DNA from: an uncultured Gammaproteobacteria bacterium
GTDB taxonomy: Bacteria; Patescibacteriota; Microgenomatia; UBA12405
Length of the DNA: 64,000 nt
NCBI GenBank assembly: GCA_964448705.1
Contig: CAYUZS010000004.1
Location: forward strand, 20,105 to 84,104
Direction: 5' to 3'
In this document: positions 6,048 to 37,023 of the stretch, piece by piece
How positions within the stretch are numbered: the stretch's first letter is position 1
How the letters are laid out: each line of letters starts with the position of its first letter
The notes under the pieces: generated by a model
Seen by the model: only the letters and a program-made list of their open reading frames with translations
What the model was told of the DNA's origin: nothing
Database searches by the model: none
Position numbers and translations under genes: made by a program

Positions 6048-6256
6048 ACGTTAATTCTAAATCATTTCACTTTCTTAAGCCTAGCGGTAAAAGTTCGGAT
6101 ATTATGCGGTTATTATCAATAATTTTGTTGTTAAATGTAAGCACGTGAAAAAACGTCATAACAGGTGTTGTTATATATATAAGTTTTGTTAGTACCGGGT
6201 AATTAAATAGTTATCGATTCGTAGCTATGAACTCAATCTATTTTTGAATTTTTTAC

Positions 6257-9419: not shown

Positions 9420-9461
9420 GTGCCTATTGTATCATGGCTTTAGCTTCAGATTTAACTTCAA

Positions 9462-18533: not shown

Positions 18534-18555
18534 TTGATTGATTATACCAATCTTA

Positions 18556-27753: not shown

Positions 27754-28380
27754 ATGATAAAGACGGTTGTTTTTGATATCGGCAACGTTGTTTGGCGGTA
27801 CCGTCCTTTACAGACTGTTCTCTTTCGTCGTTGGGGAAAAATCTTAAATATTTCTGTCTCTGATTTCAGAAAAAATTTTTTTGAAAAAGATAATCTCTAT
27901 CGCTCTTTCGAAGTTGATTCGCTTAATCTGTCTTCCTGGTTTAAAACCATTGCCCCGCAAACTAATCCTCGGTTACTTTTAAGTGTTCTTGATGACGTTT
28001 ATGGCGATTCTCAAATTTTTTCCAAATATTTAAATTATTCCGTAATTTCATTAATCAAAAATATTCGTCGTCAGGGGATTACTGTCGGCTGTCTTTCTAA
28101 TACCGAAAACTATTTTTATCCTTACTTAAAGAAAAATATTATTTCCTATTTTGATTACAGTATTCTTTCCTGGCAGTCAAAATCCCGAAAACCAGATCCT
28201 GATATTTATCAACAGATTTTTAAATACGTTTCCTGTAATCCTTCGGAAGTTTTATTTATCGACGATGTTCCAAACAACACTTTGGGTGCTCAAAAAGTAG
28301 GCCTCAATACCATTCTTTTCCAAAACTATACTCAACTTAAAAAAGAATTAGTTCCTTACTTAATCAAACCTAACGGGTAA
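27754..28380 (+). CDS. HAD-superfamily hydrolase
   Basis: Motif I 'VVFDIGNVV' (DxG variant, as in YihX-type enzymes); C-terminal 'LFIDDVPNN' motif IV-like. Confidence 0.55.
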   Translation: MIKTVVFDIGNVVWRYRPLQTVLFRRWGKILNISVSDFRKNFFEKDNLYRSFEVDSLNLSSWFKTIAPQTNPRLLLSVLDDVYGDSQIFSKYLNYSVISLIKNIRRQGITVGCLSNTENYFYPYLKKNIISYFDYSILSWQSKSRKPDPDIYQQIFKYVSCNPSEVLFIDDVPNNTLGAQKVGLNTILFQNYTQLKKELVPYLIKPNG

Positions 28381-28913
28381 TACCAGGTAAAAGGTTTCTT
28401 ACATACCGGACAAGTGGTTGGGGGTTGTTTTCCGACATGAATATTTCCACAATTCACACATTTCCAGCTCCACTCTGTTTCACTGCTGAACAAGGTATTA
28501 CTATCCATTTTATTCGCGATAATAATATATCTTTCCTCATGTTCTTTTTCTACATTTTTCAAATTTCCAAAAAGTCGTGTTGGTTCTGCGGCTCCGTCTT
28601 GTTTAGCTTGTTCCTCAAAATCGGGATACATGGTTGTCCATTCATATTTTTCTCCTTCTGCCGCCATTTTTAAATTGTCAATGGTTTTTGCAAAAGTTTT
28701 AATATTTACATCAGTTTGAATTTCAATCGGTCCTTCGATCATCTCAAATAGCTCCTCAGCATGGGCTTTTTCGTTGTCAGCAGTTTCTTCAAAAATCCTG
28801 GCGACCCACTCTTGGCCTTCTTTTCTGGCTATTTTTGCAAACGTCGTATATTTATTTCTGGCAATACTTTCACCGGTAAATGCTCTAAGTAGATTTTCTT
28901 GTGTTTTAGTCAT
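28356..28913 (-). CDS. rbr: rubrerythrin
   Basis: Ferritin-like diiron domain ('ENLLRAFTGESIARNKYT', 'EKAHAEE') plus C-terminal rubredoxin-like 'CVNCG...CPVC'. Track ORF extends to 29042; internal Met at 28913 is the likely true start. Confidence 0.8.
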   Translation of the reverse strand: MTKTQENLLRAFTGESIARNKYTTFAKIARKEGQEWVARIFEETADNEKAHAEELFEMIEGPIEIQTDVNIKTFAKTIDNLKMAAEGEKYEWTTMYPDFEEQAKQDGAAEPTRLFGNLKNVEKEHEERYIIIANKMDSNTLFSSETEWSWKCVNCGNIHVGKQPPTTCPVCKKPFTWYYPLGLIK

Positions 28914-28935
28914 AAAAAGATAATACCATAAGCGT

Positions 28936-28945
28936 AGTATACTAA
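28936..28945. promoter_or_regulatory. 10-bp perfect palindrome TAGTATACTA in the divergent rbr / copY-like intergenic region
   Basis: Read directly; candidate operator. Confidence 0.3.
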
Positions 28946-29017
28946 GGCATGGATTGCGATCGTCACTGCCATTGTCATGGTAAATGCCAACTCCTTGGTG
29001 GTTTGGAGCAAAAAATA

Positions 29018-29311
29018 ATGAATGTTCTTTGGGAATCTTCAAAACCCCTTAAACCTTCCGCTGTTTTAAAAAAAATGGCGGGGGATTATGCCTATACCAC
29101 TATTATGACTGTTCTTAAACGAATGTCAGATAAGAAATTTGTTTCTCGTCATTTAGTTGGAAATGCCTATGTTTATTCTCCGATGAAAGACAAAGAATCA
29201 TTTTCCCGGGAAACTCTTGATGATCTTTTCCTTCGTCTTTTTGAAAGTTATGGTTCCGCCGTCACCGATTCTTATCAACATGTCTCCAAAAAGTTAGGTT
29301 TTCGCAAATAA
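29018..29311 (+). CDS. BlaI/MecI/CopY-family winged-helix transcriptional repressor
   Basis: 'MNVLWESSKPLKPSAVLKKMAGDYAYTTIMTVLKRMSDKKFVSRHLVGNAYVYSP' matches the Penicillinase_R family pattern. Track start 28949 adds a Cys/His-rich 23-aa extension. Confidence 0.7.
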   Translation: MNVLWESSKPLKPSAVLKKMAGDYAYTTIMTVLKRMSDKKFVSRHLVGNAYVYSPMKDKESFSRETLDDLFLRLFESYGSAVTDSYQHVSKKLGFRK

Positions 29312-29361
29312 TTCTTTCCCCAGCTTTGTATTTTTTCTTTTTAATCTCTGTCATATTATAA

Positions 29362-29973
29362 TTGTTCATGATTAAGGCTGTAACTTTTGATCTTGATGGT
29401 GTTTATTTTACTTCCGACAGTTATTCGCGTTTCAAACATGCTTTGCCAAAAAACATTTCCAATGACTCCGTTGTCGACTTAGTTCTTTCCTCATCTCAAC
29501 AGATGATGGCCTTCAAAAAAGGGGAATTGTCGGAATCTGATTATTGGGAATATGTTAACCGTAACCTTGGTGCCGATCTCGACATTCCTCGGATTTCCCA
29601 ACTTTTATCAGACAGTTATCGCCTTAATGATCTGGTTGTCGATACTGTCAGAAAAGTCCGTTCCTTAGGTATAAAAACTTGTATCTGTACCAACAACTTT
29701 CCCACACGGATTGATGCTCTTAATTCCAAATTTGGTTTTCTTTCAGATTTTGACGTCAAAGTTATCTCTTACCAGCTTCATTCACTCAAACCTGATCCGC
29801 TTATCTTTGAAACTCTCATTAAGCAGTCCCGCTGTCTGCCGGAAGAAATAATTTTTGCTGATGATAAGCTTGCTAATGTTGCTGCTGCAAAAAATTTGGG
29901 TATCAACGCTTTTCTTTATCAGGGTTTCGATGGTTTTGTCAAAAACCTCCAGCTTTCCGGCATCTCTATCTAG
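29362..29973 (+). CDS. HAD-superfamily hydrolase (subfamily IA-like)
   Basis: Motif I 'VTFDLDGVYF'; C-terminal 'IIFADDKLANVAAAKNLGINA'. Confidence 0.7.
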   Translation: MFMIKAVTFDLDGVYFTSDSYSRFKHALPKNISNDSVVDLVLSSSQQMMAFKKGELSESDYWEYVNRNLGADLDIPRISQLLSDSYRLNDLVVDTVRKVRSLGIKTCICTNNFPTRIDALNSKFGFLSDFDVKVISYQLHSLKPDPLIFETLIKQSRCLPEEIIFADDKLANVAAAKNLGINAFLYQGFDGFVKNLQLSGISI

Positions 29974-29976
29974 ATG

Positions 29977-30011
29977 TTGACAATTTTTTGTACACTACTA
30001 CAATTGTAGTA
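29977..30011 (+). promoter_or_regulatory. promoter TTGACA-N16-TACAAT with overlapping 16-bp palindromic cop-box operator TACTACAATTGTAGTA (contains TACAnnTGTA); near-leaderless start for the HMA-permease/copA operon
   Basis: TTGACA at 29977-29982. The palindrome at 29996-30011 ends 2 nt before the ATG at 30014. Confidence 0.6.
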
Positions 30012-30013
30012 CA

Positions 30014-31369
30014 ATGTCTTCCTCCATCAAGTCCTGCAGTTTTTATGTTTCGGGTACCCACTGTCGTTCCTGTGAACTGCTCATTGAAAAAGAAATCTCC
30101 CACCTTCCGGGTATAATTTCCGTCTCCGCTTCCACTAAAAATAAAAAAGTTGTTATTAAATATCAAAAACAACAGCCGAGTCTTACTCTTTTAAATAAAT
30201 TATTCAAAGATAACCAATATGTTTTTAGTCATGATGGCACTGTATCTGAAGTTAAAATCAATCCCTTTTACAGTTTTTTAATTGCTTTTGGTTTTATTGC
30301 TATATTCTATTTTTTACAAAAAGAAAATTTTTTATCTTCTTTCCAGATTAGTAAATCTTCTTTTTCTCCCGCCTTTTTTATTTTCGGTCTTTTAGCCGGT
30401 TTTTCTACCTGCGCCGCTCTGGTAGGTGGTCTCGTTTTGTCGCTTTCCCGTCAATGGAACCGTCTCTCTTCTTCTTCTGATTCTCTTTTTCATCGGCTTC
30501 AGCCGGTTTTAGCATTTAATTTGGGCCGTTTATTTTCTTTTACGGTTTTGGGTGCTCTTTTAGGCTATTTTGGTAGTTTTTTTCAACTTTCCCTTACTAC
30601 CGGAGCAGTTATCACGATTTTAGTTTCAGTTTTAATGTTGGTTTTAGGATTACAGATGATTGGTGTTAAAGCTTTAGACTCTTTTCAATTAGCCCTCCCA
30701 AAATCTTTTACCGGTAAACTGGTTGATGAAACCCGTTTTCATGGCCGTTTTGTCCCTTTTATTCTTGGCGGTTTAACGTTCTTTCTGCCTTGCGGTTTCA
30801 CCCTAACCTCTCAGTCACTGGCTCTGGCTTCAAGTAATCCCATTCAGGGAGCACTGATTATGTTTTTCTTTTCTCTGGGTACTTTTCTACCTTTATTGTT
30901 AATTGGTCTTGGCAGTGTCAAGTTCTTTTCTAATCAGGTTTCTTCTAAATATTTTTCTCAGGTTGCCGGGATCTTGGTCATTTTTTTTGCTTTGTTTAAT
31001 TTCAAATCTCAGCTGATTGTTTTAGGATTCTTTGATACTCAAAAACCTCTAACTGTAAATTCTCAATCAGCTGTTTCCTTGGCTCCTGTTGTCAATGGTA
31101 AATATGTTTTGAAAATGGAAGCCTCTTCTACCGGGTATACCCCAAACACTTTTAAAGTAAAGGCTAATCAACCGATTCGTTGGGAAATTACTGATCGTGG
31201 CACCTCTGGTTGCACTAACGCGGTCATTTCCCGTTCTCTTTTTACCGGATCAATTCAATTAACTCCCGGAATTGTTTCGGTTAAAGAATTTATTTCTCCG
31301 GCAGATCCTGGAATTTATCGCTTTTCATGTTGGATGGGGATGATTTCCGGCACTATTGAGGTTATTTAA
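30014..31369 (+). CDS. heavy-metal-associated (HMA) domain + polytopic permease + C-terminal cupredoxin-like domain; putative Cu/Zn efflux/handling membrane protein
   Basis: N-terminal 'GTHCRSCELL' CxxC HMA motif; about 8 TM helices with Cys-containing helices; C-terminal beta domain 'IYRFSCWMGMISGTIEV'. Overlaps the copA start (TAAATG). Confidence 0.45.
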   Translation: MSSSIKSCSFYVSGTHCRSCELLIEKEISHLPGIISVSASTKNKKVVIKYQKQQPSLTLLNKLFKDNQYVFSHDGTVSEVKINPFYSFLIAFGFIAIFYFLQKENFLSSFQISKSSFSPAFFIFGLLAGFSTCAALVGGLVLSLSRQWNRLSSSSDSLFHRLQPVLAFNLGRLFSFTVLGALLGYFGSFFQLSLTTGAVITILVSVLMLVLGLQMIGVKALDSFQLALPKSFTGKLVDETRFHGRFVPFILGGLTFFLPCGFTLTSQSLALASSNPIQGALIMFFFSLGTFLPLLLIGLGSVKFFSNQVSSKYFSQVAGILVIFFALFNFKSQLIVLGFFDTQKPLTVNSQSAVSLAPVVNGKYVLKMEASSTGYTPNTFKVKANQPIRWEITDRGTSGCTNAVISRSLFTGSIQLTPGIVSVKEFISPADPGIYRFSCWMGMISGTIEVI

Positions 31370-33451
31370 ATGGCTATCCAAGTTGAAAAAATAAATATTT
31401 CGGGCATGCATTGCACTTCGTGTGCTCTTCTTGTTAAGAAATCATTGTCATCAGTCCCCGGTGTTATCGATGTTTCGGTTAACTATGCCGCTAAAAAAGC
31501 TGTCGTTAAATTCGACTCTTCTTTTTCCGCTCTTGATGATCTCCAGTCTGCTGTTGTTTCTGCCGGTTATCGTATTAATTATAAAAAAATAGATGACGCA
31601 GCTGAAAGCTTAGTTTGGCGTCAAAAGTTTTTCCTCTCGTTAATTCTCACTTTACCTCTCTTTATTTCCATGGTTATCCCTTTTTCTAATATTTTTTGGA
31701 TTGCCTTAATTCTTACTACTCTCAATTTGATTTTTGTCGGTCGGAACTTTTTTCTGGGTTTTATTTCTGCTCTTAGGTTAAGAACTTTTACTATGGATAA
31801 CCTTATTGCTATTGGCACATCGTCTGCTTTTGTTTTTAGTCTTCTTATGAACTCATATCACTATTTTGAAGTCGCTTCTTCTTTGATTACTTTTGTCACT
31901 TTAGGTAAGTGGTTAGAAAGTTTAGCTAAAGCAAAAACTTCACAGGCTGTCAGTAAATTAATTGATCTGAGTCCTAAAACTGTTCATTTAAAAACATCGT
32001 CAGGTTTTTCTGATGTATCTCTGGAATCAATCAAATCAGGCGATATTCTTTTAGTTAAGCCAGGTGAAACCATTCCTCTCGATGGTTTAATCATCAAAGG
32101 CCGGTCGTCTGTCGACCAATCATCTCTTACTGGTGAAAGTATGCCTATCGATAAAGTATTCGGTGACAAAGTTTTTGCCGGTACTCAAAATACTACCGGT
32201 TCCTTTGAGTTTAGAACTACCGTAGATAGCCAGAACACTCTTCTTTCTCAAATTGTTAAATTAGTAGAAGAAGCTCAATCAACCCAATCACCTTTACAAA
32301 ATTTGGCCGACAAAATATCTGCCGTTTTTGTCCCCCTTGTTCTGCTTATTGCTGTCATCACTTTCATTGTTTGGCGTTTTGGTTTTGCTGCCTCATGGGA
32401 GAATACTATAACCCATTTCTTGGCTGTTATTGTTATCGCTTGTCCTTGTGCACTTGGTTTGGCTACTCCAACTGTAATCATGGTCGCGACTGGTTTGGCA
32501 GCTAAACTGGGAATTTTAGTAAAAGGCGGTGATGCACTCCAGATGGCAGCCGCTGTTGATACCTTTGTTTTTGATAAAACCGGAACTTTAACGATTGGTC
32601 GTCCGACGATTACTGCTTTTAAGAATCTAAGTAGTTTTCCCGACTCAAAAATATTCTCACTAATTTATTCTTTAGAAATAACTTCCGAGCATCCCATCGC
32701 CAAAGCGTTTGTTGATTTTGTCGCTTCTAAAAAACCCAAAAAAATAAAACTTACAGATTTTAAATCGATAACCGGGTTTGGTGTTCAAGCCAGGGGAGGC
32801 AAATCTCTGTATTTTTTGGGCAAGTCACAAGATGGTCTTATAGAATTACGTCAGGATAAAAAAACTTTAGCTTCATTCATTGCCAAAGATATTCTTAAAC
32901 CGGAGAGTGTTTCTGTAATCAAATCTCTTACGGATTCTGGTTTGGGAGTTTATTTAGTAACCGGTGATCATTCTTCAAATGCTCTTGCTGTTGCCGCCAA
33001 ATTAGGTATTCCTTCAAAACACGTCTTTTCGGACACTCTTCCGGACCAAAAAACTACTATTATTAAACAGCTTCAATCACAAAAACACTTAGTTTCTTTT
33101 GTTGGTGATGGCATTAACGATTCTCCGTCCCTGGCTCAGTCTGATCTTGGTATTGCTATGGGTAATGGTACGGATATAGCCATTGAATCCGGTAATGTCG
33201 TCATAATGAACAATAATTTAAACAGTCTATTAGCTTTGCGTCAATTAAGTCAAAAAACTTACAGTAAGATTAACCAGAATTTCTTTTACGCTTTAATTTA
33301 TAATCTGGTCTTTATTCCTGTGGCTGCAGGTCTTCTTGCTCCTTTTAATATCACTCTCCGTCCGGAATTTGCGGCCTTAGCCATGAGTCTCTCATCCGTT
33401 TCTGTTGTTCTGAATTCTTTATCCCTTAATCGTTTTAGGTCCTCACGTTAA
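31370..33451 (+). CDS. copA: copper-translocating P1B-type ATPase
   Basis: HMA 'GMHCTSCAL'; TM 'ACPCALGLATP' (CPC); phosphorylation site 'DKTGTLT'; hinge 'VGDGINDSP'; 693 aa. Confidence 0.9.
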   Translation: MAIQVEKINISGMHCTSCALLVKKSLSSVPGVIDVSVNYAAKKAVVKFDSSFSALDDLQSAVVSAGYRINYKKIDDAAESLVWRQKFFLSLILTLPLFISMVIPFSNIFWIALILTTLNLIFVGRNFFLGFISALRLRTFTMDNLIAIGTSSAFVFSLLMNSYHYFEVASSLITFVTLGKWLESLAKAKTSQAVSKLIDLSPKTVHLKTSSGFSDVSLESIKSGDILLVKPGETIPLDGLIIKGRSSVDQSSLTGESMPIDKVFGDKVFAGTQNTTGSFEFRTTVDSQNTLLSQIVKLVEEAQSTQSPLQNLADKISAVFVPLVLLIAVITFIVWRFGFAASWENTITHFLAVIVIACPCALGLATPTVIMVATGLAAKLGILVKGGDALQMAAAVDTFVFDKTGTLTIGRPTITAFKNLSSFPDSKIFSLIYSLEITSEHPIAKAFVDFVASKKPKKIKLTDFKSITGFGVQARGGKSLYFLGKSQDGLIELRQDKKTLASFIAKDILKPESVSVIKSLTDSGLGVYLVTGDHSSNALAVAAKLGIPSKHVFSDTLPDQKTTIIKQLQSQKHLVSFVGDGINDSPSLAQSDLGIAMGNGTDIAIESGNVVIMNNNLNSLLALRQLSQKTYSKINQNFFYALIYNLVFIPVAAGLLAPFNITLRPEFAALAMSLSSVSVVLNSLSLNRFRSSR

Positions 33452-33468
33452 TAATTAATAATCTAATT

Positions 33469-33552
33469 ATGGCTAATAAAAAGAAACCGGACCATATCTG
33501 CAATTGCGGTAATGATTGTCGTTGTGGAGACGACAAGTCTTGCGGCTGTTAA
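33469..33552 (+). CDS. unannotated 27-aa Cys-rich peptide MANKKKPDHICNCGNDCRCGDDKSCGC (7 Cys); metallothionein-like candidate
   Basis: ATG-to-TAA ORF 18 nt downstream of the copA stop, followed at 33585 by a strong intrinsic terminator. Under 60 aa, so absent from the track. Confidence 0.4.
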   Translation: MANKKKPDHICNCGNDCRCGDDKSCGC

Positions 33553-33584
33553 TCACCTCGTTTCTCAAATAGACGAATCAAACA

Positions 33585-33611
33585 AAAACCCCGTCTCTCA
33601 ACGGGGTTTTT
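33585..33611. terminator. bidirectional rho-independent terminator (AAAAACCCCGTCTCTCAACGGGGTTTTT)
   Basis: Perfect GC-rich stem CCCCGT/ACGGGG flanked by A-run and T-run; placed between the cop operon end and the convergent dsbA-like gene end. Confidence 0.7.
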
Positions 33612-33626
33612 CTGTTCTTCCTTATT

Positions 33627-34436
33627 TTATTTCAGTGCTAAATCAACTGTTGATTGCATGTCGGTGAAACTGTACGCTCCGGCGAATGGGGTAGTGTTGA
33701 CGATGAAATATGGTGTCCCTTGGAAACCCATTTTTTGGGCGATTGCCATATCTTCACTCATTCTGCTGGCATATTTACCGCCTTCTAAACATCCTTTCAT
33801 CTTTTGATAGTCAACTACACCTTTCAGGAAATCAGCTAAAACTCCGGCTTTAGTCGCATCATTTTTAACTGTGTCATTTATCAGGTCATAACCCTCAGCA
33901 CTCATTAATCTGTTGTGTACTTCCCAGAATTTTCCCATTTCATTGCCGCAATAAAATGCTTGTGTGGCTAGTTCTCCGTTTCCGTGTCCGTTGGCATACA
34001 TCCAAACCATACCCGCTTTACCCTCTTCAACTAGTTTTCTCATTTCTATTTCCGGAGGGACATAAGTGCCTCCTTGTTTAGCTGTCAGGAATTGTTGTCC
34101 CATTTCTGCTCCGATAGTCTCGTTCTCTCCGGAAGCCACGTGACAAAAAGGACAGCTCGGATCACTGAATTCCACAAACAATAGTTTGCTGTTTTTGTTA
34201 CCCAGCACAATATTTTTGTTGTCGTTGAATAATGATTTCACATCATCAATATTCACCTCAGCAGCTGTTTGTGCTGTTGCTGTTTGTTGTATAGTTGTTG
34301 TAGTTGAGGTAGCAACATTACCTGATTTTGCCAGAAAATAACCATTACTGAATATCGATAACATCATTAGTCCGACGGCAAAAATCAACAGATTTTTATT
34401 TATAAGTATGCTTTTGTTTTCATTATTGTTTGTCAT
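33627..34436 (-). CDS. membrane-anchored DsbA/BdbD-like thiol:disulfide oxidoreductase
   Basis: N-terminal TM; thioredoxin fold with 'CPFC' active site preceded by 'LLFVEFSDPS'. Confidence 0.75.
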   Translation of the reverse strand: MTNNNENKSILINKNLLIFAVGLMMLSIFSNGYFLAKSGNVATSTTTTIQQTATAQTAAEVNIDDVKSLFNDNKNIVLGNKNSKLLFVEFSDPSCPFCHVASGENETIGAEMGQQFLTAKQGGTYVPPEIEMRKLVEEGKAGMVWMYANGHGNGELATQAFYCGNEMGKFWEVHNRLMSAEGYDLINDTVKNDATKAGVLADFLKGVVDYQKMKGCLEGGKYASRMSEDMAIAQKMGFQGTPYFIVNTTPFAGAYSFTDMQSTVDLALK

Positions 34437-34451
34437 ACTACAACTGTAGTA
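34436..34451. promoter_or_regulatory. second copy of cop-box-like operator TACTACAACTGTAGTA (15/16 identical to the 29996 site)
   Basis: Overlaps the start codon of the dsbA-like gene and lies 66 nt upstream of the 34517 gene. Confidence 0.5.
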
Positions 34452-34516
34452 GAATAAGTTGTTGCTGTCAACTATTAATTTATTATTTATTATAATTTTG
34501 CAGTAAACTATTACTT

Positions 34517-34975
34517 ATGTTTTTAGTAAAACCTGTTCTTGCCCAATGTCCGGTATGTATCGTTACTATTGGTGGGGGAATGTTTATTGCTCAAAAATTG
34601 GGAATTGATGATTTTTTAGTCTCGATTTGGATCTCTGCTCTTAACACCGCCATTTCTTTCTGGTTAGCTACCAAATTCAAGATAAAACTTCTTAATAATC
34701 CTTGGTTTTTATCTATACTCATGTTCGGTTTAGCTTTATTCTATTTCGACACCACCGGACAAATCAATGATTCCGCTAATAAACTTTTAGGTTTAGATAA
34801 GATCGTCCTTGGCCATATTGTCGGCTTATTATCTGTCTTCTTGGGAAATTTTATTTATGGTTTTTCAAAATACAAAAATAACCATCGTGCTCTTTTCCCA
34901 TACTCAAAAGTAGTTTTTCCGGTCAGTGTTACTCTCATTGTCACTTTCGTTCTTAAGATGGTTTTTGCTCTTTAG
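34517..34975 (+). CDS. small polytopic membrane protein with N-terminal CPVC motif
   Basis: 'VLAQCPVCIVTIGGG' followed by about 4 TM helices; divergent from the dsbA-like gene. Confidence 0.3.
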   Translation: MFLVKPVLAQCPVCIVTIGGGMFIAQKLGIDDFLVSIWISALNTAISFWLATKFKIKLLNNPWFLSILMFGLALFYFDTTGQINDSANKLLGLDKIVLGHIVGLLSVFLGNFIYGFSKYKNNHRALFPYSKVVFPVSVTLIVTFVLKMVFAL

Positions 34976-35507: not shown

Positions 35508-35548
35508 AAGCTATCCGCAAACTCATACAAGTTTAGTATAATATCCAC

Positions 35549-36076
35549 ATGAACAATAATCATGACCTCCAAAAATTTATGGATAGAATTAAAAAAGCCG
35601 AAGCTGGCAACCAGCTCGATCTTAGTTCCGATGAAGATCTATCCATTGCCATAATGAATCTTATTTCCATTGAGGAACATTTATTTTTCACCGGCAATAA
35701 AACCGGAAAGATAAAATACTTCAATCTTCTCAATGAAGTTCGGGAAATGCGCAAAGAGCTTCTTAAAATGATTGTAAAAAGTCCGGAGGGTGAAGTTTGG
35801 TGCACCAGTAAGCATCTCCTGGCTGCCTCTATGCGTCTTTTTGAAGTTGGTACTAAAGCTCAAACAAAAGGTGATAACGATCAGGCCTATGATCTTTTTA
35901 AAAAGTCTTACGATCTATACAATTTGTTCTGGGGTATCAATCTTGGTTTGGTAAAAAATCTAGAAAAGAAAAGTGTTGATGATTCAAAAGAAAAATCTCT
36001 CAATTACCAAAATTCGGATTTCTTAGGAAAAGTTTCCGGAGTAATTGGAAAGATTTTGGATTGTTGTCGGGAATAA
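35549..36076 (+). CDS. hypothetical protein
   Basis: ORF with a TATAAT-like element upstream (35533); no motif recognised. Confidence 0.3.
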   Translation: MNNNHDLQKFMDRIKKAEAGNQLDLSSDEDLSIAIMNLISIEEHLFFTGNKTGKIKYFNLLNEVREMRKELLKMIVKSPEGEVWCTSKHLLAASMRLFEVGTKAQTKGDNDQAYDLFKKSYDLYNLFWGINLGLVKNLEKKSVDDSKEKSLNYQNSDFLGKVSGVIGKILDCCRE

Positions 36077-36080
36077 TTAT

Positions 36081-36392
36081 TTACTGATTATTTTTCTTCG
36101 ACTTCTCAATTATTTTCTTGGTTTTTCTGCCTACATCGTTGATAAAATCTTCTGCCCTTTTTTCTTTAGATTTACTTCTGTGTCTGATAACATACTCAGG
36201 ATTTTTCGGGACAATAATTGCCATTATGATGTAAATAATCAGCCCTGGACCTTGAAAAAAAGTCAACGCAATAAAAACCAACCTTACTATTGTCGAATCG
36301 ATATCCAAAAATTCAGCCAAACCTCCGCAAACTCCGGCCAAAATGAAATTTTCTCTGGATCGATAAATCCTTTTTTTATTTCTTTGTTGCAT
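36081..36392 (-). CDS. PspC-domain membrane protein
   Basis: 'ILAGVCGGLAEFLDIDSTIVRLVFIALTFF' is the PspC signature. Confidence 0.7.
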   Translation of the reverse strand: MQQRNKKRIYRSRENFILAGVCGGLAEFLDIDSTIVRLVFIALTFFQGPGLIIYIIMAIIVPKNPEYVIRHRSKSKEKRAEDFINDVGRKTKKIIEKSKKNNQ

Positions 36393-37023
36393 TAGCTAGT
36401 TTTTCCTGATCAACCACAATTACTTTTTTATTTTTGTTAATTATCAAACCTTCCTTTTCCAATTTTAACATTTGTAAGGTCACTGTTTCTCTTGTTAATC
36501 CGGTCAAAGATGCGATCAGTTTATGTGTTATTCCGAAATCAATGTGTTCATAGTGTCCGATTGTTTCGACTGTCCTATTCGCCAGAGAGGAAACCATTGT
36601 TGCCACTTTGTTGTAAGCGCTTCCTGAAAGTAAAACCCCCATCTGTTCAACTAAATCAACGAATGATAACAGGATGTTATTCACCACTTGGTCTTTAAGT
36701 TCAGGATTTTTTACAAATAATTCTTCAACTTCATTGACTGAAGCGGTATACATTTCCACCGGAGTTATTGCTTCAAAATAAAAACGATTTTCTATTCCTG
36801 TCAATGCATAAATCGACGTAAAGTACAAAATCGGTTTAAAAAACTGCATGGTTATTTCTTGTCCGTTTTCGCTTAAGGTATACACCCTCACATATCCGGA
36901 TTTTATATAACCCACATAACCAGGTTTTTCACCTGGCCTTAAAATAACTTCTCCTTTTTTGTACTTAACTAAATTATGGTCGGAGAAATAATTCTCCATT
37001 TTTTTCTTTAGGTTTTTGTCCAT
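36376..37023 (-). CDS. Crp/Fnr-family transcriptional regulator
   Basis: cNMP-binding beta-roll in the N-terminal half; C-terminal HTH 'HKLIASLTGLTRETVTLQMLKLEKEGLI'. Confidence 0.75.
   Translation of the reverse strand: MDKNLKKKMENYFSDHNLVKYKKGEVILRPGEKPGYVGYIKSGYVRVYTLSENGQEITMQFFKPILYFTSIYALTGIENRFYFEAITPVEMYTASVNEVEELFVKNPELKDQVVNNILLSFVDLVEQMGVLLSGSAYNKVATMVSSLANRTVETIGHYEHIDFGITHKLIASLTGLTRETVTLQMLKLEKEGLIINKNKKVIVVDQEKLANATKK

Follow-up and report, generated by a model that had tools for sequence, protein, structure and literature searches.

The closest described counterparts of the locus reported here are the copper-responsive repressors of Firmicutes, namely CopY of Enterococcus hirae and Streptococcus pneumoniae and CopR of Lactococcus lactis. 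The TACAnnTGTA core is an experimentally established site for BlaI, MecI and CopY proteins, and CopY operators are 16 bp long (PMC7253601). A C-terminal CxCx4CxC (or CxC) motif defines CopY (PMC11672702), and the regulon of L. lactis CopR extends beyond transporter genes (PMC7253601). Here we describe a putative circuit of this kind in a 64,000-nucleotide stretch of DNA (the window) from an uncultured bacterium of the Microgenomatia (Patescibacteriota; UBA12405), contig CAYUZS010000004.1. It comprises a gene for a repressor, here called REP, two copies of a 16-bp palindromic box, and the genes that follow the boxes, which encode a membrane protein with HMA and cupredoxin domains (the HMA-permease), the Cu(I)-exporting ATPase CopA and a DsbA-like thiol-disulfide oxidoreductase. 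From the sequence, and by analogy with CopY, we think it probable that these genes form a copper-stress regulon under a single repressor of the BlaI/MecI/CopY superfamily that is CopY-like and released from DNA by Cu(I). The link between REP and the boxes is the part we hold with high confidence; direct sensing of Cu(I) by the N-terminal tail of REP is a part towards which we lean less firmly.

The locus resembles the CopY and CopR systems in superfamily, in the fold of a winged helix with a helical dimerisation domain, in a Cys-rich motif offering four thiols per chain, and in partial autoregulation; its putative operator is likewise a palindromic TACAnnTGTA core extended to 16 bp, with a P1B-1 copA operon as the predicted target. 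It differs in that the Cys motif is C-terminal (CxCx4CxC or CxC) in the Firmicute proteins and N-terminal (CxCxCx3C) in REP, and in that the setting here is the Microgenomates, within the candidate phyla radiation (CPR), with leaderless promoters and a DsbA-like target. Whereas the published CopY operator, RNYKACANNTGTMRNY (PMC7253601), wants R...Y as its outermost pair, the boxes here have T...A at positions 1 and 16, invariant within the clade, and fit it at 14 of 16 positions, positions 3-14 among them. The copY-cupA-copA operon of S. pneumoniae has the same order of repressor, membrane-bound cupredoxin-type Cu(I) protein and copA, and the C-terminal domain of the HMA-permease aligns with CupA (4f2e). 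Here, however, the cupredoxin forms one chain with an N-terminal HMA domain and with a DsbD_2 domain of seven transmembrane helices with two intramembrane Cys residues, it is predicted to face outwards, and a HAD-family gene stands between the repressor and the operon. The BlaI/MecI-BlaR1/MecR1 systems, including Mycobacterium tuberculosis BlaI (Rv1846c, 2g9w), provide the closest solved structures and the same type of operator core, and paralogues of REP in related genomes have an HExxH partner in the BlaR1 position. The window, in contrast, has neither a sensor-protease partner nor beta-lactam genes, and a metal, not proteolysis, is the probable input. In Proteobacteria, the Scs (suppressor of copper sensitivity) and DsbC/DsbG systems tie copper stress to extracytoplasmic thioredoxin-fold proteins and a DsbD-like membrane protein; the regulator there is CpxR or CueR and the proteins and phylum are others, whereas here the DsbD-like part is fused to HMA and cupredoxin domains. 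Literature searches found no CopY-type regulation in Microgenomates or Patescibacteria, no variant with an N-terminal Cys cluster, nothing relevant on copper-sensing BlaR1-like systems, and nothing informative on leaderless transcription in CPR bacteria.

The main features, by position in the window, are:

29996-30011: box 1, TACTACAATTGTAGTA, a perfect palindrome spanning the -10 element and predicted start site of the HMA-permease/copA operon
34436-34451: box 2, TACTACAACTGTAGTA, overlapping the start of the DsbA-like gene (minus strand)
28949-29311, plus strand: REP repressor gene, 120 aa, BlaI/MecI/CopY superfamily (Pfam Penicillinase_R)
28938-28943, plus strand: -10-like hexamer of REP, TATACT, leaderless-type
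29977-30004, plus strand: promoter of the HMA-permease/copA operon, TTGACA (29977-29982)-N16-TACAAT (29999-30004), matching at 11 of 12 bases
30014-31369, plus strand: HMA-membrane-cupredoxin protein, 451 aa (Pfam HMA, DsbD_2 and Cupredoxin_1)
31370-33451, plus strand: copA, P1B-1 Cu(I)-exporting ATPase, its start adjoining the stop codon of the preceding gene
34443-34471, minus strand: promoter of the DsbA-like gene, TTGACA (34471-34466)-N17-TACAGT (34448-34443), matching at 10 of 12 bases
33627-34436, minus strand: DsbA-like thiol-disulfide oxidoreductase, membrane-anchored, 269 aa, with CPFC at residues 95-98
34517-34975, plus strand: CPVC membrane protein, 152 aa, with five predicted helices and an invariant AQCPxC

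Both boxes lie where an earlier note on this DNA, made from the letters alone, had placed them, and they are the sole sites in the window at two or fewer mismatches; 0.07 such sites are expected, and none of 100 shuffled sequences reached the observed count. The core TACAnnTGTA occurs twice in the window, inside box 1 and inside box 2. The same note had described a promoter overlapping box 1, with the box ending 2 nt before a start codon, and a cupredoxin-tailed HMA permease as the first gene of the operon. We found the same arrangement: TTGACA-N16-TACAAT is the best sigma-70-type match of the region, its -10 hexamer coincides with box positions 4-9, 2 nt separate the box from the ATG at 30014, and promoter and box precede the orthologous gene in relatives too. 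Box 2 overlaps the start of the DsbA-like gene as claimed; read on the minus strand, it finishes at the A (34436) of that gene's ATG. At both targets the operator covers the -10 element and the predicted start of transcription, which falls at the ATG or 2-3 nt before it, with essentially no 5' leader. With both elements lying under the operator, bound REP would block RNA polymerase on these leaderless promoters. The further suggestion that box 2 also serves the divergent CPVC gene fared less well: the gene (34517) lies 65 nt from the box on the opposite strand, the hexamers found there at the right spacing are poor (TTTTCA, TACAAC) with no good promoter over the box, and control of CPVC by box 2 is uncertain for this window. 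The palindrome was also considered as an RNA hairpin or terminator, which was ruled out, as it precedes the predicted start sites and lacks a loop.

Promoters of leaderless type are common in the window. Of 59 genes, 21 have a TANNNT hexamer that ends 5-6 nt ahead of the ATG, over a background of 2-3 per offset, often as TATAAT, TAGAAT or TAAAAT (for example at 2447-2460, 6048-6061, 9420-9433, 18534-18549 and 29357-29367), and only 8 of the 59 genes have a Shine-Dalgarno-like motif. Both box targets are predicted to be leaderless, taking as the mark of this class a -10 hexamer that ends about 5-9 nt before the start codon without a Shine-Dalgarno sequence. Leaderless promoters thus look like the genome-wide norm here, and not a peculiarity of the cop genes.

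The box is conserved in relatives. Across 29 related genome loci (443 kb; loci are cited by L number) there are 37 boxes at no more than one mismatch, compared with 0.2 in shuffled sequences. In the symmetrised matrix of the box, positions 1-7 and 10-16 are nearly invariant and positions 8-9 are free. The relatives' boxes stand immediately before the start codons of HMA-permease, copA, DsbA-like and REP orthologues, and at a greater distance from the start of CPVC; the TTGACA precedes the box by 13-14 nt. In most loci REP orthologues lie less than 10 kb from boxes, and about half of the repressor genes with the N-terminal Cys cluster (N-Cys type) have a box at their own promoter, in two spacing classes, the window falling in the 9-10-nt class. 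A metagenome scan for exact copies of TTGACA-N13/14-TACTACAnnYGTAGTA gave at least 120 loci. Among the matches listed, the box is followed by an HMA-permease gene in 28 cases, a DsbA-like gene in nine, copA in eight, CPVC in seven and REP in one; the four cop gene families account for at least 52 of the metagenome matches, and about 75 of the 120 loci listed carry genes of the cop cluster.

The spacing between box and gene is equally regular. Box and ATG are -1 to +4 nt apart in 26 of the 28 HMA-permease genes and all eight copA genes among the metagenome matches listed; together with the TTGACA at 13-14 nt, this conserved geometry supports the leaderless or near-leaderless transcript predicted earlier for box 1. 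For the DsbA-like gene the distance is +3 in four of the nine metagenome genes listed and -1 in the window and in L027. The box stands directly before copA at L012, L013, L014, L018 and at least eight metagenome loci, and before the DsbA-like gene at L027 and at least nine metagenome loci, so the proposed tie between disulfide-bond catalysis and the copper regulon is a conserved one. Promoter and box are oriented towards CPVC at L020 and at least seven metagenome loci, and in relatives CPVC is a predicted member of the regulon. On this comparison, the boxes amount to a phylogenetic footprint of a putative operator on leaderless promoters.

REP matches Pfam Penicillinase_R (PF03965) with 71 bits (cut-off 22.6, E=1.3e-19). 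Its gene had been assigned to 29018-29311, but the start is at 28949, because the Pfam match begins at residue 16 of the 120-aa open reading frame (ORF), 5 nt separate the TATACT from the ATG at 28949, and the additional N-terminal residues are conserved among homologues. The NCBI record likewise has 120 aa, whereas the Logan gene call, at 97 aa, is clipped. Many family entries (P0001, P0303, P0304, P0306, P0309, P0315; about 20 of 60 database hits) begin at an internal Met and have 95-106 aa, which clips the N-Cys cluster; the Cys codons are present upstream wherever the DNA is readable. The AlphaFold2 (AF2) model of REP, with a mean predicted local distance difference test score (pLDDT) of 87.5, has a winged helix and two C-terminal helices (helices 18-29, 36-42 and 49-61, strands 65-70 and 73-78, then helices 82-101 and 104-116). 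Foldseek matched it best to M. tuberculosis BlaI (2g9w), with other MecI and BlaI structures (1okr, 1sd4, 1xsd), at probability 1.0, and 2g9w is also the best sequence match in the PDB (E=2e-6). The model places REP in the BlaI/MecI/CopY superfamily, with a winged helix and a helical dimerisation domain. It is the sole BlaI-family gene in the window by tblastn, as had been claimed; it does not lie directly upstream of box 1, as had also been claimed, since a 201-aa HAD hydrolase gene (29368-29973) intervenes. Homologues come from Candidatus Shapirobacteria and other Microgenomates, and the clade is narrow, with 42 cluster representatives at E<=1e-10 in an exhaustive search. Judged by the closest homologues, the source of the window is probably a groundwater-type member of the Shapirobacteria.

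The N-terminus of REP, MDCDRHCHCHGKC (encoded at 28955-28987), contains Cys residues C3, C7, C9 and C13 in a C-x3-C-x-C-x3-C arrangement. Homologues begin MNCxCHCNGKC (CxCxCx3C), and the four Cys are kept in 27-30 of 31 full-length homologues; judged from its sequence, this cluster is the likely metal sensor of REP. Related genomes also hold a Cys-less repressor paralogue with a longer C-terminus, followed by a membrane protein of about 305 aa with an HExxH motif in the BlaR1 position. This pair (HExxH gene of 302-317 aa) is found directly upstream of HMA-permease/copA at:

L006:12909-14197
L015:11199-12541
L021:14430-15745
L023:9998-11261
L026:9998-11264

In all loci compared, a downstream HExxH membrane gene accompanies none of the 32 N-Cys repressors and 17 Cys-less paralogues. 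It is chiefly because the N-Cys cluster and the HExxH partner are mutually exclusive that we regard the Cys tail as the probable signal input. The partner reaches 21.6 and 15.3 bits against Peptidase_M56 (cut-off 31), in the HExxH region only; with such sub-threshold scores an 'M56/BlaR1' label is weakly supported, and we call it the BlaR1-position HExxH membrane protein. It ends in a Cys/His-rich tail (C.HL..C...DHC) and could be a BlaR1-like envelope metal sensor.

These pairs bear on a second possibility, that REP is a classical BlaI-type repressor inactivated by proteolysis through a BlaR1-like membrane protein encoded elsewhere, its N-terminal Cys residues being structural. Paralogues with nearly the same recognition helix do pair with the HExxH protein at the five loci above, and both repressor types occur together in L006, L015 and L021. 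Yet the partner gene adjoins no N-Cys repressor, and the 64-kb window contains no HExxH/M56 sensor-protease homologue; moreover, the partner-coupled type has a longer C-terminal helix region (..AISQFVD..LLK.YL) that N-Cys repressors lack, and many loci have good boxes with the N-Cys type only (L001, L003, L014, L018). We consider proteolytic control of REP very improbable. Two other proteins extend the range of Cys-rich additions: P0320, within the REP clade, ends in a CFCEGCPHNSGC tail that forms a C-terminal Cys cluster, and P0427, a distant BlaI-family protein of actinobacterial or high-GC-looking composition, has a seven-Cys N-terminal extension, CDNPRCHCSPCACGIGCRC. Such additions at either end may have arisen repeatedly in the BlaI superfamily.

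For REP as a direct copper sensor, the circuit would run as follows. A REP dimer would bind the 16-bp palindrome TACTACAnnTGTAGTA, as family knowledge and co-occurrence suggest, and so hold down two sets of targets, the operon for the HMA/seven-helix/CupA-like cupredoxin protein and the P1B-1 Cu(I)-ATPase, and the gene for the membrane-anchored DsbA-like oxidoreductase. The signal would be Cu(I), bound by the four-Cys cluster, which lies on a flexible tail immediately preceding helix 1 of the winged helix. If the cluster behaves like the C-terminal CxCx4CxC of CopY, it may carry Zn(II) while REP represses; incoming Cu(I) would then take the place of Zn(II), and the DNA would be released. Upon derepression CopA would export cytoplasmic Cu(I), the HMA-membrane-cupredoxin protein would handle copper at the membrane or its outer face, and the extracytoplasmic thiol-disulfide enzyme would counter copper-induced mis-oxidation of cysteines. 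A degenerate box between the promoters of REP and its divergent neighbour could give weak autoregulation. We infer the functional roles of the targets and the Cu(I)-dependent release by analogy.

Several observations weigh against this circuit. REP scores only 30.9 bits against TIGR02698 (CopY/TcrY), where the cut-off is 121.95, and it has no C-terminal CxCx4CxC or CxC and no Cys after residue 13. Having failed two defining tests, REP is by its sequence not CopY in the strict sense, and the earlier note's 'CopY/BlaI-like' label holds at the level of the superfamily. The N-terminal tail is modelled as disordered (pLDDT 42), and the model gives a metal site no support. The autoregulatory box of the window has three mismatches, half of the REP orthologues have no box, and an unlinked protease or a second regulator may be encoded outside the 64-kb window. 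Nor is the box on its own specific to copper, as exact copies occur at unrelated promoters. Promoter and box, as TTGACA-N13/14-TACTACAAYTGTAGTA, precede at least 18 helix-turn-helix (HTH)-nucleotidyltransferase genes (about 196 aa, Pfam NTP_transf_2) on contigs of 32-60% GC, including:

L082:3835-4467
L086:4772-5383
L124:5013-5624
L196:2068-2716
L150:508-1137
and 13 more

Each of these genes is followed by a small HEPN-like gene, in an arrangement that resembles an MNT/HEPN toxin-antitoxin pair, and no BlaI gene was found in the DNA around them. Promoter and box also occur 29 nt upstream of a 79-aa RHH/ParD-like ORF at six or more loci (L135, L168, L176, L178, L186, L194), on contigs of 65% GC unrelated to CPR bacteria. 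In a Spirochaetota metagenome-assembled genome, a BlaI/HExxH operon (L055:9889-13083) has TTGACA-TACTACAAATGTAGTA at its own promoter and a second box, TACTACATGCGTAGTA, before an HtrA-like protease gene, with no copper genes nearby. The BlaI protein of L055 has the same AYTTIMTVL recognition helix as REP, and since a repressor with that helix has the same box there, the pairing of box and helix is supported. A candidate motif for M. tuberculosis BlaI, TAC[GT]AC-N4-GT[CA]GTA, was looked for near BlaI homologues in L030-L080 (mostly actinobacterial); only L055 matched, by way of the present box, and we draw nothing from this motif.

The copies before HTH-nucleotidyltransferase genes allow a third reading, in which the boxes are bound by another regulator, for instance the HTH of those very proteins, or represent the local promoter in palindromic form (TACAAT with its mirror image), and REP regulates something else. 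The -10 hexamer is indeed contained in the box. The mirror arm (positions 10-16, GTAGTA), however, is as conserved as the -10 half despite having no promoter role, a palindrome of this kind is absent from the other leaderless promoters of the window, the box is found together with REP and at REP's own promoter, and no HTH-nucleotidyltransferase homologue was found in the window. We give this reading the least credence of all those considered.

The identities of the targets, like the operator geometry, its conservation and the regulator fold, were read from the sequence. In the 451-aa HMA-permease, an HMA domain with CRSC is followed by seven predicted transmembrane helices (DsbD_2), with Cys133 and Cys260 inside helices, and by a putative C-terminal CupA-like cupredoxin domain with Cys400 and C439-W-M-G-M. 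The Cupredoxin_1 match scores 30.9 bits (cut-off 27), and the alignment with CupA (4f2e/2mry), weak at E=0.0055, brings CupA's Cys and CxMxM ligands into register. Hydropathy and the distribution of Lys and Arg (10 inside, two outside) predict the HMA domain inside and the cupredoxin outside. The architecture is widespread, with more than 2,289 homologues, some labelled Actinobacteria, and in NCBI they go under the name 'sulfite exporter TauE/SafE family protein'. CopA scores 577 bits against TIGR01511 (cut-off 397) and has the CPC (IACPCALG), NX6YNX4P (NFFYALIYNLVFIP) and MxxSS (AMSLSS) signatures. The DsbA-like protein matches Thioredoxin_4 (54.6 bits) and DSBA (29.3 bits), both over the cut-off, and has a single N-terminal transmembrane helix. 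CPVC belongs to a conserved family of 471 homologues that has no Pfam or NCBIfam match; its AF2 model (pLDDT 80) found no PDB fold with E<1. The idea that CPVC partners the DsbA-like protein in the manner of DsbB or VKOR was rejected, given the lack of any family or fold match and its single conserved CxxC.

With a thiol-disulfide enzyme among the targets, the boxes and REP might act just as described while the input to the N-Cys cluster is thiol oxidation, or the cluster carries an Fe-S centre or a thiophilic metal other than copper, in a general thiol or oxidative-stress regulon that happens to include copA. Copper would in that case act on REP indirectly at most. A four-Cys motif alone cannot tell Cu(I), Zn(II), an Fe-S cluster and a disulfide switch apart. 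The conserved neighbour of REP, a rubrerythrin gene, is a possible co-target, and in relatives boxes adjoin cysteine desulfurase genes (Aminotran_5; L019:8558, L088:2545) and a thioredoxin-reductase-like gene (Pyr_redox_2; L029:4654, Dojkabacteria), which hints that in some genomes the regulon takes in genes for Fe-S and thiol maintenance. By far the commonest targets are nevertheless the Cu(I)-ATPase and the HMA/CupA-like protein, with 36 of the 52 cop-family metagenome matches listed, and the spacing of the Cys residues is similar to that in the Cu/Zn site of CopY, CxCx4CxC (PMC11672702). A redox or Fe-S regulon is accordingly an alternative that we consider unlikely, if less so than the other two, and a copper-released REP remains the reading we prefer.

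The neighbouring features are:

28356-28913, minus strand: rubrerythrin (Pfam Rubrerythrin, 89 bits), divergent from REP across a 35-bp spacer
28925-28920, minus strand: -10-like TATTAT of the rubrerythrin gene
28924-28939: degenerate box, TACCATAAGCGTAGTA, matching 11 of 14 specified bases
29368-29973, plus strand: HAD-family hydrolase, 201 aa, between REP and box 1, with its own TATAAT (29357-29362) 5 nt before the ATG
33584-33611: hairpin, terminator-like in both directions, where copA and the DsbA-like gene converge

The degenerate box stands 9-10 nt before the REP ATG, like the good boxes of L003, L006, L008, L012, L021 and L145, and may be a weak or decayed autoregulatory operator. As it lies exactly between the divergent -10 hexamers of REP and rubrerythrin, any binding there would affect both genes; autoregulation in this window is uncertain. 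The divergent pairing of rubrerythrin and REP is kept in most related loci, and rubrerythrin may be co-regulated with REP. A 10-bp palindrome, TAGTATACTA at 28936-28945, consists of the right arm of the degenerate box and the REP -10 hexamer, and is probably a by-product of two overlapping divergent promoters. The HAD hydrolase gene is syntenic with the cluster in many relatives.

Further from the main targets, a weak box-like site, TCATACAAGTTTAGTA at 35523-35538 (three mismatches), shares bases with a TATAAT that precedes by 6 nt the start codon of a conserved gene for 175 aa (35549-36076), itself syntenic with CPVC in many relatives; taken alone, the site is at chance level. A box variant, TRTTACAnnnGTAGTA, occurs 19-30 nt before a Crp/Fnr-type regulator gene at L014:18791, L016:2193 and L027:8383, and the Crp/Fnr homologue of the window (36376-37023, 215 aa, cNMP_binding and HTH_Crp_2) has no box.

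A wider proposal, which we offer tentatively and would not yet favour, is that in Microgenomates one BlaI-type winged helix acting on TACTACAnnTGTAGTA has been fitted with interchangeable input modules for the same copper-export genes. The N-terminal CxCxCx3C tail would be an undescribed class of direct Cu(I) sensor, the BlaR1-position HExxH protein with its Cys/His-rich C-terminus a protease-coupled envelope metal sensor, and the C-terminal Cys cluster of P0320 a rarer form. Under this proposal, the N-terminal tail would have gone unnoticed because gene callers often clip it.

Few regulatory circuits have been worked out for CPR bacteria, which cannot be grown alone. The locus offers a complete and testable one, with repressor, operator, promoters and targets, conserved in many Shapirobacteria genomes. 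It ties two uncharacterised, widespread families, the HMA-DsbD_2-cupredoxin proteins and CPVC, and a DsbA-like enzyme to copper stress, and the rule of operator plus leaderless promoter can correct start-codon calls in these genomes. If the copper reading is true, CopY-type copper sensing would extend beyond the few validated Firmicutes (PMC11672702), and a metal-binding Cys cluster would be able to occupy the opposite end of the protein, in mutual exclusion with a BlaR1-like partner. The family would then present a natural experiment in sensor swapping on a fixed DNA-binding domain.

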